Shown: piece by piece, positions 21,365-40,690 of the stretch
How positions within the stretch are numbered: the first letter of the stretch is position 1
Layout: each line of letters begins with the position of its first letter
Source of the DNA: Escherichia coli
GTDB lineage: Bacteria > Pseudomonadota > Gammaproteobacteria > Enterobacterales > Enterobacteriaceae
Assembly: GCF_024700885.2 (NCBI RefSeq)
Contig: NZ_CP117016.1
Length of the DNA: 64,000 bases
Strand: one strand, 5' to 3'
Translations under genes and position numbers: made by a program
Notes under the pieces: generated by a model
Told to the model about the DNA's origin: nothing
What the model saw: only the letters and a program-made list of their open reading frames with translations
The model's database searches: none

Positions 21365-22360
21365 TCAGGTGGAACAACGGATCAACAGCGGGCAAGGGAT
21401 CCGCGTCACTCTTCCTCCTTCACGACCTTCAATAATATGCAATGCAGCTTCCCGCCCGATAATGTCATGTGGAAGCTGAATTGTGGTCAGCGGCGGTAAA
21501 AACAGATGCCCGACGCCAACCAGATTATCAAAGCCCATTACGGCGACATCCTGCGGGATACGTACCCCCTTCGCCAGGAGAACCTGATAAGCGACAAAGG
21601 CTGCGCGATCGTTACCACATATCAGAACATCAAAATCTGGTTTGCCAGATTTGAAGTGGTCATTGAGTAAACTTGCGAGATCGGTGTAGTGATCATCACC
21701 TGTTGCCATGTGAAATTGTTTCACCTCAGCCAGATCTCGTCCAGCATCACGCCAGGCCTGCTCAAATCCCTGCCGACGATACCCTGTTGCCAACGCACTT
21801 TCCGGTAGCCAGAAGCATAACGGTTGACGATAGCCCGCCGCGAGCAAATGCTGTGTTGATTCATATTGTGCAGTGTAATCATCAGGGATATAACTGGGTA
21901 ACGCTGGGTCATCCGCCACACAGTTCGCCAATACAATATTTTCACCATACAGAGACTCAGGCAGCGTGATATGTCGCAGCCCCATTGTAGTATAGATAAT
22001 GCCATCCGGACGGTGGGCAAGCAGCTGACGTGCCGCGCGGGCAGCGTCATCTTCAGAAAAAATATTGATTAAAAAACTATTCCAGCCGAACTCGCTGGCG
22101 GTTTGCTCAATGGCAAGCAGAATATCAACAGAGAAAGGAGTGGTAGCAGTGTCCTGCGCCAGCACGGCGAGAGTCGACGGCTTACGTCCTTGAGCGCGCA
22201 TCTTACGGGCGGAAAGATCAGGAACATAATTCAGGGTCTGGATTGCCTGCAATACGCGGTCACGCGTTGCAGGACGCACAGATTCTGCATTATGCATCAC
22301 CCGGGAGACTGTCATCATCGACACTCCCGCCAGGCGTGCGACATCCTTTAATGAAGCCAT
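21365..22360 (-). CDS. cscR: LacI-family transcriptional repressor of the csc genes
   Basis: 331 aa from MASLKDVARLAGVSMMTVSRV… (HTH then periplasmic-binding-like sugar domain); the longer track ORF (from 22558) adds an implausible N-terminal extension. Confidence 0.85.
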   Translation of the reverse strand: MASLKDVARLAGVSMMTVSRVMHNAESVRPATRDRVLQAIQTLNYVPDLSARKMRAQGRKPSTLAVLAQDTATTPFSVDILLAIEQTASEFGWNSFLINIFSEDDAARAARQLLAHRPDGIIYTTMGLRHITLPESLYGENIVLANCVADDPALPSYIPDDYTAQYESTQHLLAAGYRQPLCFWLPESALATGYRRQGFEQAWRDAGRDLAEVKQFHMATGDDHYTDLASLLNDHFKSGKPDFDVLICGNDRAAFVAYQVLLAKGVRIPQDVAVMGFDNLVGVGHLFLPPLTTIQLPHDIIGREAALHIIEGREGGRVTRIPCPLLIRCST

Positions 22361-22590
22361 ACCCAAGCCGTTTGCCGTAAAACGGGCACTGTAGCAGAAA
22401 CAGACGTCACTGGCGAGATCCAACGATATTCTCAACGCCCTATCACCCGACACGGCAATACAATAAAAAATAACAATAATTCCCGGACAATTGTGCCCAA
22501 TTCCGCCTCTGTTCTCGCCAACGAGTAACCATATAGGCAAGTAGGTAAAACATGCCAACTGGCATCGCCAACCTGGAGAAGAAAATATAA

Positions 22591-22821
22591 ATATGGATCA
22601 TTGTGCTGCCGCTGTATCCCGACATCAGCCCGGAAATTATTGCGATTGCTATCGGTTCAGGTGCGATTGGCTGCACGATCGTTACGGACTCGCTTTTCTG
22701 GCTGGTGAAGCAATATTGCGGCGCTACGCTCAATGAAACATTTAAATACTATACGACAGCGACATTTATCGCTTCAGTCGTCGCTCTGGCGGGCACATTC
22801 CTGCTGTCATTTATCATCTAA
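22591..22821 (+). pseudogene. dsdX: 3' remnant of D-serine transporter gene dsdX (GntP family), truncated by the csc insertion
   Basis: About 76 codons of hydrophobic GntP-like C-terminus (…IAIAIGSGAIGCTIVTDSLFWLVKQYCG…FLLSFII) with no N-terminal body, ending 17 bp before dsdA. Confidence 0.7.
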
Positions 22822-22838
22822 GCGCAAAGAGACGTACT

Positions 22839-24167
22839 ATGGAAAACGCTAAAATGAACTCGCTCATCGCCCAGTATCCGTTGGTAAAGGATCTGGTTGC
22901 TCTTAAAGAAACCACCTGGTTTAATCCTGGCACGACCTCATTGGCTGAAGGTTTACCTTATGTTGGCCTGACCGAACAGGATGTTCAGGACGCCCATGCG
23001 CGCTTATCCCGTTTTGCACCCTATCTGGCAAAAGCATTTCCTGAAACTGCTGCCACTGGGGGAATTATTGAATCAGAACTGGTTGCCATTCCGGCTATGC
23101 AAAAACGGCTGGAAAAGGAATATCAACAACCGATCAGCAGGCAACTGTTACTGAAAAAAGATAGCCATTTGCCCATTTCCGGCTCCATAAAAGCACGCGG
23201 CGGGATTTATGAAGTCCTGGCACATGCAGAAAAACTGGCTCTGGAAGCGGGGTTGCTGACGCCTGAAGATGACTACAGCAAACTGCTGTCTCCGGAGTTT
23301 AAACAGTTCTTTAGCCAATACAGCATTGCTGTGGGCTCAACCGGAAATCTGGGGTTATCAATCGGCATTATGAGCGCCCGCATTGGCTTTAAGGTGACAG
23401 TACATATGTCTGCTGATGCCCGAGCATGGAAAAAAGCGAAACTGCGCAGCCATGGCGTTACGGTCGTGGAATATGAGCAAGATTATGGTGTTGCAGTCGA
23501 GGAAGGACGTAAAGCAGCGCAGTCTGACCCGAACTGTTTCTTTATTGATGACGAGAATTCCCGCACGTTGTTCCTTGGGTATTCCGTCGCAGGCCAGCGT
23601 CTTAAAGCGCAATTTGCCGAGCAAGGTCGTATTGTCGATGCTGATAACCCTCTGTTTGTCTATCTGCCGTGTGGTGTTGGCGGTGGTCCTGGTGGCGTCG
23701 CATTCGGGCTTAAACTGGCATTTGGCGATCATGTTCACTGCTTTTTTGCCGAACCAACGCACTCCCCTTGTATGCTGTTAGGCGTCCATACAGGATTACA
23801 CGATCAGATTTCTGTTCAGGATATTGGTATCGACAACCTTACCGCAGCGGATGGCCTTGCAGTTGGTCGCGCATCAGGCTTTGTCGGGCGGGCAATGGAG
23901 CGTCTACTAGATGGCTTCTATACCCTTAGCGATCAAACCATGTATGACATGCTTGGCTGGCTGGCGCAGGAAGAAGGTATTCGTCTTGAACCTTCGGCAC
24001 TGGCGGGTATGGCCGGGCCTCAGCGCGTGTGCGCATCAGTAAGTTACCAACAGATGCACGGTTTCAGCGCAGAACAACTGCGTAATGCCACTCATCTGGT
24101 GTGGGCGACGGGAGGTGGAATGGTGCCGGAAGAAGAGATGGAGCAATATCTGGCAAAAGGCCGCTAA
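22839..24167 (+). CDS. dsdA: D-serine dehydratase (PLP-dependent)
   Basis: 442 aa ORF beginning [19 protein letters not shown]…, with PLP-lysine region (SGSIKARGG). Confidence 0.95.
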
Positions 24168-24275
24168 TTAATTTTCAATGCAGCATCGCCATCCTTTCCC
24201 TGGGTGAGCGATGCTGCCGATGGCGCAGGCTTAAGATTCTACCGTCTTACCTGCTATAGCTCTCTCTTTTTACCA

Positions 24276-25814
24276 TCACCCAACACCTTTCGCTGTAAAC
24301 GGCGGTTTCGCAAACCAAACCAATACCGTAAGTAAGATAAAAGCAATAGCCGCCATACGGAAAATCTCATTTGCAGAAATTGAAAGTGATTGCTGAGTTA
24401 TTTCATTATTAATTTCATTAAGAACCCCTGAAAGCGAACCATAGTATTTATCCATAATTTGTGACGATGAATTAAACACGGGGTTAAATTGATCGATGGT
24501 TGCTGTCAACTGACTATGGTGTAACGATTCGCGTCGTCCCCACAGCGTCATTGTCAACGACGTACCAACTGATCCTGACAAGGTACGAAAAAAATTACTC
24601 ATACTCGAGGCATTAGCAAATTTATTATCTGGCAAACCTGAAAACGAAATCGTTGTTAAGGGTAAAAAGAAACAGGCGACGGCGAATCCCTGAAAAAACT
24701 GTGGCAAAATGATGCCTGTAAAATCAATCGTTGGCATAAATGTCACAGAACGCCAGTAATAGCAAACCGCATACATCAAAAAACTAAATGTCACTAACAA
24801 CCGCATGTCTATTTTGTTGCCATAACGTCCTATCAAAGGTGAAATTAATAGTGGCATGATGCCGATGGGCGCATAAGCAAGTCCGGCCCATATCGCATTA
24901 TACCCCATCGTTTCCTGGAGTAACTGCGGCATAAGGACGATCGCCCCAGAGTAAAATAAATATGCGCATGTGATACTCACAATACCAATGGTGAAATTAC
25001 GGGACTTAAATAAACTGAGATCAAGAATCGGATTCTCTGAGGTCGACTCCCAAATGACTAAAGAAATCAGAGAAATAACTGACACTACTGTTAGTATTAT
25101 TATTGTACTCGAGTTGAACCAATCCAGATCGCGCCCTTTATCAAGCATTATCTGCAAGCCACCAACACCGAGCACTAACAGGGTCAGTCCTGGTAGATTC
25201 ATTTTGACCGGTGAAGTCTCAGTTTCTCTTCCTTTAAGTAAGGTTAAGCATAATGTCAGGACGATAATCCCCATTGGGACATTGATTAAAAATATCCAAC
25301 CCCAGCTAAAGTTATCGCAAATGTAGCCACCCAATATCGGCCCACATATCGGAGCGATAATTACGGTCATTGACCATAATGCCAGAGCAAATGTTCTTTT
25401 TTCTGGCGGATAATTCCTTAATAATAAACTCTGTGACAGTGGAATTAACGGCCCCGCCATTAATCCCTGAACGACTCTAAAAAATATCAGCACATCAAGA
25501 TTGGTCGATAAACTACACATTAAGGAAGACAGCGAAAAAAAAGTGACTGAAAGTAAAAATAACCTTAATTCGCCTATTCTTTGTGCCAGCCTGCCGGTAA
25601 CAGGGATCGCAATGGCATTTGCTACGCCAAACGAAGTGATAACCCAGGTGCCTTCGTCTGTTGATGCTCCCAGAAAGCCAGATATTGTCGGTATTGCGAC
25701 GTTAGAAATAGTGGAATCCAACATTTGCATAAACGTCGCTAATGACAATGCAATAGTAACGCACCATAACGTCCCACCGGTTAATGGTGCCGGAGTTGAT
25801 TTAGTGATTGCCAT
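24276..25814 (-). CDS. emrY: multidrug efflux MFS transporter (EmrB paralogue)
   Basis: 512 aa 14-TM MFS ORF; overlaps emrK by 1 bp; synteny with evgAS. Confidence 0.95.
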   Translation of the reverse strand: MAITKSTPAPLTGGTLWCVTIALSLATFMQMLDSTISNVAIPTISGFLGASTDEGTWVITSFGVANAIAIPVTGRLAQRIGELRLFLLSVTFFSLSSLMCSLSTNLDVLIFFRVVQGLMAGPLIPLSQSLLLRNYPPEKRTFALALWSMTVIIAPICGPILGGYICDNFSWGWIFLINVPMGIIVLTLCLTLLKGRETETSPVKMNLPGLTLLVLGVGGLQIMLDKGRDLDWFNSSTIIILTVVSVISLISLVIWESTSENPILDLSLFKSRNFTIGIVSITCAYLFYSGAIVLMPQLLQETMGYNAIWAGLAYAPIGIMPLLISPLIGRYGNKIDMRLLVTFSFLMYAVCYYWRSVTFMPTIDFTGIILPQFFQGFAVACFFLPLTTISFSGLPDNKFANASSMSNFFRTLSGSVGTSLTMTLWGRRESLHHSQLTATIDQFNPVFNSSSQIMDKYYGSLSGVLNEINNEITQQSLSISANEIFRMAAIAFILLTVLVWFAKPPFTAKGVG

Positions 25815-31000: not shown

Positions 31001-31605
31001 AAGTCAGTATGCAACATTATGATCTGCTTATTACTGACGTTAATATGCCGAATATGGATGGTTTTGAGTTGACTCGCAAACTCCGTGAGCAAAATTCTTC
31101 CTTACCTATCTGGGGGCTTACAGCCAACGCACAGGCTAACGAACGTGAAAAAGGGTTAAATTGCGGCATGAACTTATGTTTGTTCAAACCGTTGACCCTG
31201 GATGTACTGAAAACACATTTAAGTCAGTTACACCAGGTTGCGCATATTGCACCTCAGTATCGCCACCTTGATATCGAGGCCCTGAAAAATAATACGGCGA
31301 ACGATCTACAACTGATGCAGGAGATTCTCATGACTTTCCAGCATGAAACGCATAAAGATCTACCCGCTGCGTTTCATGCACTAGAAGCTGGCGACAACAG
31401 AATTTTCCATCAGTGTATTCATCGCATCCACGGTGCGGCTAACATCCTGAATTTGCAAAAGTTGATTAATCTTAGCCATCAGTTAGAAATAACGCCCGTT
31501 TCAGATGACAGCAAGCCTGAAATTCTTAAGTTGCTGAACTCTGTTAAAGAACACATTGCAGAGTTAGACCAGGAGATTGCTGTTTTCTGTCAACAAAATG
31601 ACTAA
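28012..31605 (+). CDS. evgS: hybrid sensor histidine kinase EvgS
   Basis: 1197 aa ORF with signal peptide, tandem periplasmic solute-binding-like domains, TM, HisKA (…SHEIRTP…), HATPase, receiver and HPt domains. Confidence 0.95.
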   Translation: MKFLPYIFLLCCGLWSTISFADEDYIEYRGISSNNRVTLDPLRLSNKELRWLASKKNLVIAVHKSQTATLLHTDSQQRVRGINADYLNLLKRALNIKLTLREYADHQKAMDALEEGEVDIVLSHLVASPPLNDDIAATKPLIITFPALVTTLHDSMRPLTSSKPVNIARVANYPPDEVIHQSFPKATIISFTNLYQALASISAGQNDYFIGSNIITSSMISRYFTHSLNVVKYYNSPRQYNFFLTRKDSVVLNEVLNRFVDALTNEVRYEVSQNWLDTGNLAFLNKPLELTEHEKQWIKQHPDLKVLENPYSPPYSMTDETGSVRGVMGDILNIITLQTGLNFSPITVSHNIHAGTQLNPGGWDILPAAIYSEDRENNVLFAEAFITTPYVFVMQKAPDSEQTLKKGMKVAIPYYYELHSQLKEMYPEVEWIKVDNASAAFHKVKEGELDALVATQLNSRYMIDHYYPNELYHFLIPGVPNASLSFAFPRGEPELKDIINKALNAIPPSEVLRLTEKWIKMPNVTIDTWDLYSEQFYIVTTLSVLLVGSSLLWGFYLLRSVRRRKVIQGDLENQISFRKALSDSLPNPTYVVNWQGNVISHNSAFEHYFTADYYKNAMLPLENSDSPFKDVFSNAHEVTAETKENRTIYTQVFEIDNGIEKRCINHWHTLCNLPASDHAVYICGWQDITETRDLIHALEVERNKAINATVAKSQFLATMSHEIRTPISSIMGFLELLSGSGLSKEQRVEAISLAYATGQSLLGLIGEILDVDKIESGNYQLQPQWVDIPTLVQNTCHSFGAIAASKSIALSCSSKFPEHYQVKIDPQAFKQVLSNLLSNALKFTTEGAVKITTSLGDIDDNHAVIKMTIMDSGSGLSQEEQQQLFKRYSQTSAGRQQTGSGLGLMICKELIKNMQGDLSLESHPGIGTTFTITIPVEITQQVATVEAKAEQPMTLPEKLSILIADDHPTNRLLLKRQLNLLGYDVDEATDGVQALHKVSMQHYDLLITDVNMPNMDGFELTRKLREQNSSLPIWGLTANAQANEREKGLNCGMNLCLFKPLTLDVLKTHLSQLHQVAHIAPQYRHLDIEALKNNTANDLQLMQEILMTFQHETHKDLPAAFHALEAGDNRIFHQCIHRIHGAANILNLQKLINLSHQLEITPVSDDSKPEILKLLNSVKEHIAELDQEIAVFCQQND

Positions 31606-37160: not shown

Positions 37161-37403
37161 GCGCCGGTGATTTACAAGTAAGGGTATGATTACGCCTTTT
37201 AAAGCGTACCATAAAACATAACATAATAAATGATTTGTGATGACACGGGATTATTGCGGTTTACTTTGAGGAAGATAAAATGCGAGTTTATAGAACCGCG
37301 AGCGCCAAATAATTTTATGACCACAACCTGTCGTATTGTGGTCATAAAAAATTGTCGGCTGGAGGGAGTTAAATCCTTTACCTCAATATACTGCCTGTCA
37401 GCG

Positions 37404-40626: not shown

Positions 40627-40690
40627 AAGCAAACTGTGCAATGAAAAACAGGAGCCATCAGGCTCCTGTTTGCATTTTTGAGGTCGGTGT

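Follow-up and report, generated by a model that had tools for sequence, protein, structure and literature searches.

The intergenic region between the convergent genes dsdA and emrY of Escherichia coli carries a stable, single-copy hairpin immediately after the dsdA stop codon. We propose, with moderate confidence, that this stem-loop determines where the dsdA (dsdXA) mRNA ends at steady state, through a combination of Rho-dependent termination, trimming and message stabilization. In strain K-12 an RNA 3′ end maps to the dsdA strand just beyond the stem, and Rho-sensitive read-through is reported nearby. Comparative analysis moreover identifies the hairpin as the terminal ∼14 codons of a yidF-like gene that was otherwise lost, retained beside dsdA in Escherichia, and the substitution pattern indicates that its stem has been selectively conserved in the absence of coding constraint.

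The element was analyzed within a 64-kb stretch of E. coli DNA (the window), of which a 241-nt region was searched and found identical to E. coli O157:H7 strain TR01. The window contains the csc sucrose island and a dsdX that is truncated, whereas dsdA is intact and is followed by emrY (Table 1), and both the list of open reading frames and the RefSeq annotation agree with a first-pass annotation of this DNA in placing dsdA and emrY in convergent orientation. Upstream, positions 21365 to 22838 show an O157-type rearrangement in which cscR, encoding a LacI-family regulator on the minus strand, abuts a 3′ fragment of dsdX; dsdA has thereby lost dsdC and its normal promoter context. In EHEC, dsdA is reported to be silent unless deletions bring the cscA or z3622 promoters near, and the O157:H7 gene has been described as intact and normally silent (PMC7486766). 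Use of the element is thus rare in the O157:H7 genome, and the hairpin is probably idle there unless dsdA becomes reactivated. A small-protein reading of the open reading frames between dsdA and emrY found no support; dsdA and emrY are absent from the O157 Sakai small-gene supplements, and a consensus promoter scan of positions 23500 to 25000 returned a single weak promoter-like site, located within emrY.

Table 1. Features of the dsdA-emrY region, in window coordinates
Feature	Position	Strand	Details	Basis
dsdA (D-serine ammonia-lyase / D-serine deaminase) CDS	22839-24167	+	stop TAA 24165-24167	ORF list and RefSeq annotation of identical O157:H7 record
Relic of yidF-like gene 3′ end	24175-24228	-	L R H R Q H R S P R E R M A M L H, then stop TGA (TCA on + at 24175-24177)	tblastn of E. 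coli YidF against the window
Core hairpin	24180-24217	+	arms 24180-24189 / 24208-24217, 10 perfect pairs; 12 nt past dsdA stop	
Equivalent of K-12 RNA 3′ end 2480585	24222	+		coordinates transferred via gap-free hairpin alignment
Second, weaker hairpin	24225-24254	+	GCAGG..UAAGAU / GUCUUA..CCUGC	fold of 108-nt region, allele alignments
C-rich, G-poor, pyrimidine-rich stretch	24225-24330	+	candidate Rho-utilization region for dsdA read-through; overlaps emrY 3′ end in antisense	
emrY CDS	24276-25814	-	stop TGA 24276-24278	ORF list and RefSeq annotation

Both direct reading of the sequence and a repeat finder recovered the 10-bp stem that the first-pass annotation had reported, its arms GCAGCATCGC and GCGATGCTGC being complementary at 10 of 10 positions and separated by 18 nt. 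On the plus strand the stem extends inward by five further pairs (24190-24194 with 24202-24206), leaving A24207 bulged and a 7-nt apical loop, and this GC-rich structure of 15 pairs with a short loop has the make-up of an intrinsic-terminator hairpin. Folding, which had been suggested as a check, gave −27.1 kcal/mol for the 46-nt hairpin on the plus strand (z = −5.67) and −23.0 kcal/mol on the minus strand (z = −4.35), with none of 200 shuffled sequences folding as well on either strand. A search for perfect inverted repeats (10 bp or longer, loop no larger than 20 nt) yielded 27 10-mer hits at nine loci in the 64-kb window compared with 1.16 ± 1.5 in dinucleotide shuffles, an expectation that makes such a repeat rare by chance. 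Perfect repeats of this size are thus ∼20-fold more common in the window than in shuffles, the hairpin being one of the nine sites. The other eight lie at 7281-7317, 13103-13131, 14861-14892, 31341-31379, 37313-37349, 40646-40671, 59327-59360 and 62934-62962; several of them, such as the one at 59327 (AAAAAAGCCGGGGA), have A-runs ahead of the stem and resemble ordinary terminators that are possibly bidirectional. The second hairpin in Table 1 is allele dependent, being well paired in O157 and having a broken outer stem in K-12.

A published 3′ end coincides with this structure. In the K-12 Term-seq data of Adams et al. (2021, eLife, PMC7815308; Supplementary file 1, sheet LB 0.4), an end is listed at NC_000913.3 position 2480585 on the plus strand, in the context GTTTCAACGCAGCATCGCAATCCTTTCCCTGGGTGAGCGATGCTGCCGATG / GCGCAGACTT, with the slash marking the end. 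The K-12 stem occupies 2480543 to 2480580, and the RNA end, in ...GCGAUGCUGCCGAUG, lies 5 nt past it. On the dsdA side, the 3′-end mapping that had been called for is therefore already available and places the end at the hairpin. The signal is weak, with an average count (1,243) near the lower end of the table, and was seen under one condition only and in K-12, not O157 (PMC7815308); we infer that what was mapped in K-12 also holds for the O157 allele. The end had been classified as “orphan” only on account of its distance from the dsdA stop codon, 55 nt, which exceeds the 50-nt limit for “primary” ends (PMC7815308).

The first-pass annotation had correctly noted that a clear U-tract is missing. 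The tail reads CGAUGGCG on the plus strand and AUUGAAAAUUAA on the minus strand, and where an intrinsic terminator has a U-tract of 7 to 8 nt, the first 8 nt after the stem contain 0 to 1 U on the plus strand and a scattered A/U mix on the minus strand. A consensus terminator scan of positions 23500 to 25000 likewise returned 0 terminator-like sites. Further downstream, Adams et al. (Supplementary file 2) list a Rho termination region at 2480768 on the plus strand, antisense to emrY (Rho score, 3.87; p = 3.9e-9; PMC7815308), where the ratio of downstream to upstream reads was 26/86 in untreated cells and 253/216 with bicyclomycin; the score is computed over 800-nt windows from low counts, and it neither locates the termination site nor ties the read-through to dsdA transcripts. 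This region lies ∼180 nt past the hairpin, at approximately position 24406 of the window. The intervening RNA includes the candidate Rho-utilization region (Table 1), in which C exceeds G by 13 to 16 per 60 nt, placing it in the top ∼2% of the window, and by up to 19 in K-12. On the minus strand, the RNA antisense to the dsdA 3′ end is C rich as well.

In the mechanism that we favor, RNA polymerase would mostly pass the hairpin because no U-tract follows it. Rho would then load on the C-rich RNA and terminate transcription within the antisense of the emrY 3′ end, and 3′-to-5′ exonucleases would trim the tail back until blocked by the hairpin, which would in this way stabilize the dsdA message. 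A close precedent exists in the Rho-dependent transcripts analyzed by Dar and Sorek (2018, NAR, PMC6061677), which have precise 3′ ends just past stable stem-loops lacking U-tracts, are protected from PNPase and RNase II and carry rut sites just downstream. The dsdA hairpin shares with these stem-loops its stability, the missing U-tract, a 3′ end a few nucleotides on, the C-rich stretch that comes next and, by the published Rho score, apparent bicyclomycin-sensitive read-through downstream; it differs from them in having a traceable origin inside the coding sequence of a neighboring gene. By this analogy, Rho termination and trimming, rather than weak intrinsic termination, would make the dsdA end, and the hairpin would stabilize the mRNA. 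The element is largely accounted for, most probably as one of the protective 3′ stem-loops already described for Rho-dependent mRNAs, with borderline terminator character, and is neither a REP nor a switch.

The main rival is a mixed form in which weak intrinsic termination occurs at the hairpin and Rho serves as a back-up; intermediates between intrinsic and Rho-dependent ends do exist (Dar and Sorek 2018, PMC6061677). A self-sufficient intrinsic terminator, possibly bidirectional, that releases RNA polymerase for both dsdA (plus strand) and emrY (minus strand) without Rho seems rather unlikely. Such a terminator would account for the GC-rich stem that is strong on both strands, for the mapped end 5 nt past it, for the position between convergent genes and for the UUUAUCAG or UUUAAUCAG that follows the homologous hairpins of yidF and Citrobacter on the plus strand. 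It is at odds, however, with the tails of the dsdA copy on both strands, with the negative consensus scan and with the ∼4-fold rise in downstream signal upon bicyclomycin treatment, and no minus-strand 3′ end has been reported: Adams et al. list none between 2480500 and 2480699 in K-12 (PMC7815308), where we assume that emrKY expression was probably too low under the conditions sampled. Of the earlier suggestion of a shared terminator, a terminator-type role at the plus-strand 3′ end thus stands on the K-12 Term-seq data, whereas the hairpin is probably not a self-sufficient intrinsic terminator, since it lacks a U-tract and Rho-dependent read-through is reported downstream. Like canonical intrinsic terminators, it is GC rich, has terminator-like size and energy, follows directly after a stop codon and has an adjacent 3′ end; unlike them, it has no 7- to 8-nt U-tract on either strand and no upstream A-tract. 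The bidirectional terminators of Ju et al. (2019) are said to lie between convergent genes, typically flanked by an A-tract and a U-tract. The dsdA hairpin is similarly symmetric, lies between convergent genes and folds on both strands, but it lacks both tracts, and its mapped end is on the plus strand only. emrY transcripts would cross the hairpin 58 nt past the emrY stop codon, and use of its predicted minus-strand fold (−23 kcal/mol) by emrY is possible.

A tblastn comparison of E. coli YidF with the window located the relic given in Table 1; weak similarity to YidF may continue to position 24261. The minus strand reads QHRSPRERMAMLH in O157 and QHRSPRERIAMLR in K-12, in each case followed by a stop codon in register, and in comparison with the intact C terminus, QHRSPMELM(A/T)MLR-stop, the relic is similar in frame and of equal length to the stop. 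The hairpin aligns without gaps to the yidF-like gene end, one arm corresponding to CAG-CAT-CGC (QHR) and the other to GCG-ATG-CTG (AML), two codon triplets that are mutually reverse complementary. When one genome per species was scanned for dsdA, 80 loci were recovered, and in 33 of these an intact convergent yidF-like gene adjoins dsdA (among others in Salmonella diarizonae, Pseudocitrobacter and most Citrobacter and Klebsiella); at least 30 genomes hold the intact gene at this position. It ends in ...MRDLIKQHRSPMELMAMLR-stop in Citrobacter and Klebsiella, and at the loci with an intact gene the sequence directly past dsdA is the 3′ end of a convergent gene that closes with ...HMRVMRDLIKQHRSPMELMAMLR-stop. 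We refer to the gene as yidF-like, since NCBIfam describes its product as a truncated anaerobic sulfatase maturase homologue and the products of the next genes resemble E. coli YidG, YidH and YidE (no NCBIfam match). Graded relics were also observed, comprising 24 codons with internal stops in Escherichia sp. E1V33 (E = 6e-4) and 19 codons in the atypical E. coli SCPM-O-B-8794. In its stem, the dsdA relic differs from the Citrobacter type at 0 of 20 positions and from E. coli yidF at 2 of 20. Being nearer to the Citrobacter type, it descends from a yidF-like gene that lay beside dsdA rather than from a duplicate of the resident yidF. The searchable library contained no literature linking yidF with dsdA or naming dsdA, emrY and a terminator together, and the TERMITe supplements contained no dsdA or emrY entry.

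The resident E. coli yidF, which is convergent with emrD, bears a homologous hairpin (GCAGCATCGT/ACGATGCTGC; NC_000913.3 3855119-3855156) in its last 14 codons, 12 nt past the emrD stop codon. The two copies share their arms, apart from a single C:G pair that has become U:A with compensation, and agree in the 18-nt spacing and in lying 12 nt from the convergent stop codon. They differ in that the yidF copy is still coding (QHR...TML) and is then followed by UUUAUCAG, whereas the dsdA copy is noncoding, its loop has diverged and the U's are gone. The Citrobacter homologues are likewise followed by UUUAUCAG or UUUAAUCAG on the plus strand. These UUUA(A)U-tailed relatives may be weak intrinsic terminators, and the yidF hairpin may be the emrD terminator. 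The tails suggest that the loss of the U's moved the E. coli relic toward Rho dependence. Adams et al. report no 3′ end at the yidF hairpin and list a minus-strand Rho region at 3854772, antisense to emrD (PMC7815308).

Conservation of the stem was assessed in ten noncoding relics (six Escherichia alleles, E. albertii and three Kluyvera; the sequences are not independent). Pairwise identity reached 95% in the stem arms, compared with 46% in the loop and 47 to 50% in the flanks, and only 4 of 20 stem columns were variable versus 44 of 47 others (Fisher p = 3e-9, from nonindependent sequences). Between O157 and K-12, the 108-nt intergenic region contains 16 differences, just one of which falls within 24180 to 24228; coding DNA differs by ∼1 to 2%. 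All sampled E. coli alleles fold at −20 to −27 kcal/mol (K-12, −23.9 kcal/mol). The flanks of the hairpin (24168-24179 and 24229-24275) differ by ∼25 to 30% between O157 and K-12, compared with ∼1 to 2% for the adjacent genes. Many of the downstream differences are T/C changes within a pyrimidine tract (CTCTCTCTTTTT versus CCCCCTCCTTTT), which would fit a constraint on pyrimidine content rather than on sequence.

The same structure is maintained where the gene is still intact. Across the 33 yidF-like genes of this kind, the mean folding energy of the last 54 nt is −20.5 kcal/mol, compared with −11.8 kcal/mol for other windows of the same genes, and the terminal window is the most stable one in 15 of the 33. 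Likewise, the last 14 codons of E. coli yidF share 83 to 88% DNA identity with Citrobacter and Salmonella (76% with one Citrobacter), while the remainder of the gene shares ∼40 to 70%. The embedded stem has decayed (∼−10 kcal/mol) in K. oxytoca and K. spallanzanii, where a canonical terminator, ATGGCGACGAAG...CTTTCGTCGCCATTTTTTT, separates dsdA from the yidF-like gene (loci L020, at ∼3850-3885, and L021). It has also decayed in Kluyvera sichuanensis, where the yidF-like gene is not adjacent to dsdA.

We regard it as improbable that the hairpin is a neutral yidF-like pseudogene leftover, palindromic only because the QHR and AML codons happen to be reverse complements, and without present function. 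In favor of such a leftover, the coding-sequence origin is clear, and covariation in a fixed register is weak: in 37 sequences, 81% of the cells were paired compared with 78.5% in shuffles, a value reached by 5 of 500 shuffles, and only two pairs changed on both sides. Uncompensated mismatches also occur in some alleles, as with G24188A (AR0055-type allele), which creates an A·C mismatch on the plus strand and is probably present in ∼14% of E. coli genomes. Since covariation is weak, support for selection comes from the conservation contrast and not from compensatory change. Some genera, Pseudocitrobacter among them, pair in a register shifted by 3 nt (sliding by +3 gives 62.8% paired), which partly explains the weak covariation, and we therefore relied on per-sequence folding relative to gene-body windows and on the contrast between stem and nonstem positions. 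Against a neutral leftover, the arms have stayed 95% identical in relics whose loop and flanks are only ∼46 to 50% identical, and an RNA 3′ end maps to the hairpin. Moreover, E. albertii and Kluyvera, which have different downstream genes, have a loop shortened by 9 nt and have nevertheless kept a perfect stem of 11 to 12 bp.

Across loci the hairpin lies 7 to 20 nt past the dsdA stop codon whichever gene comes next, be it emrY (E. coli), a gene for an MFS transporter (Kluyvera) or a yidF-like gene (Citrobacter, Klebsiella and other genera). In E. albertii and Escherichia sp. E1V33, emrKY-evgAS is missing from the dsdA locus and the hairpin is still found with dsdA, followed by genes that we take to be yfdY-lpxP. 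Given that the hairpin tracks dsdA despite its varied neighbors and that the sole mapped end is on the dsdA strand, we conclude that it belongs with dsdA. The whole ∼12-kb emrKY-evgAS-yfdE...ypdI block of E. coli is missing after the hairpin in E. albertii and E1V33 (loci L005 and L004, 3830-5700), and it must thus have been inserted or deleted right beside the hairpin. A second, divergent dsdA copy in E. coli strain S3, where dsdXA lies by an inovirus-type gene, is followed 7 nt past its stop codon by an unrelated hairpin, GCCACAUCG...UGAUGUGGC (−22.7 kcal/mol; locus L097, 1576-1613), which is also without a clear U-tract.

A role at the level of DNA, whether through protein binding to the palindrome, cruciform formation or recombination at a junction, appears very unlikely. 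It would be in line with the location of the locus at the right-hand border of the variable argW-dsdCXA island and with the conservation of the arm sequence itself and not only of its pairing. The left and right flank halves are, furthermore, mosaic among strains (for example, in “capsule mutant 18b”), which suggests old haplotypes and recombination. On the other hand, the element has no known binding motif or partner, the conserved hairpin occurs as well at emrD/yidF, which is not an island border, and the RNA 3′ end offers a simpler explanation.

The alternative pairing pointed out by the first-pass annotation, CGCCATC (24187-24193) with GATGGCG (24219-24225), is indeed present in the O157 allele, where it and the main stem are mutually exclusive. 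A regulatory switch, in which this pairing would compete with the main stem and modulate termination or stability, is nonetheless highly improbable. Only the O157, EC-10, caps18b and JCH8249 alleles form the alternative helix without mismatch, K-12 and Nissle having one mismatch and the AR0055 type two, and since most alleles thus lack a perfect helix, a function for it is unlikely. In addition, the predicted fold uses the main stem with a frequency of 0.92 (46-nt hairpin alone), and compared with Escherichia sp. E1V33, GATGGCG sits at what seems to be a deletion junction.

The proposal of a REP-like element did not hold up: although the hairpin, like REP/BIME elements, is an intergenic palindrome between convergent genes, a frequent REP site, a REP-like or other dispersed or mobile palindromic element is hardly credible, given that the sequence derives from yidF-like coding sequence, shows no REP consensus, is not mobile and is single copy. 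The 61-nt element was detected between dsdA and emrY in 5,397 of 5,426 complete E. coli genomes, with a median of one and a maximum of two places per genome even at E ≤ 10, and it occurs once in the 64-kb window, where no further copies were found with up to three mismatches. An Rfam scan (E ≤ 10) gave chance-level matches only, the sole one overlapping the hairpin being Ysr197, which scored 11.3 bits where the gathering score is 167. Sixteen plasmid records also matched the 61-nt query at E ≤ 10, probably as short partial matches. The NC_000913.3 annotation as used lists no REP or repeat_region even at the known lspA-fkpB REP, and its blank dsdA-emrY intergenic region therefore carries no weight. 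For REPs themselves, partly Rho-dependent termination and stabilization of mRNA have both been demonstrated (bioRxiv 10.64898/2026.03.23.713779).

Taken further, the comparison with yidF leads to a more tentative view, namely that the hairpin could be a portable RNA 3′-end module, retained by selection, that has outlived its host gene. It would have arisen within the last 14 codons of yidF, where it would restrict DNA and protein sequence alike, the QHR and AML codons having to stay reverse complements, and would have served the convergent emrD or dsdA; after loss of the yidF-like gene, it would have been kept in Escherichia and Kluyvera, acting bidirectionally at dsdA/emrY. If so, it would be a clean natural case of a coding sequence turned into a noncoding 3′-end element, and of RNA structure driving the unusual conservation of a protein C terminus.

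The mechanistic class is already known, and our results change no paradigm. What is new is the assignment of a K-12 “orphan” Term-seq end to dsdA, together with an explanation for a palindrome conserved in nearly all E. coli, which is the kept tail of a lost yidF-like gene and has its counterpart in the same structure conserved inside living yidF coding sequences. The locus offers a worked example of how a Rho-dependent gene gains a protective 3′ hairpin from the tail of a dying convergent gene, and it illustrates that, in a gene that otherwise evolves fast, an embedded RNA structure can cause the last 14 codons to be conserved best. The D-serine locus matters for the niche adaptation of UPEC and EHEC, and reactivation of dsdA in EHEC, whether engineered or natural, would be expected to yield transcripts ending at this element.
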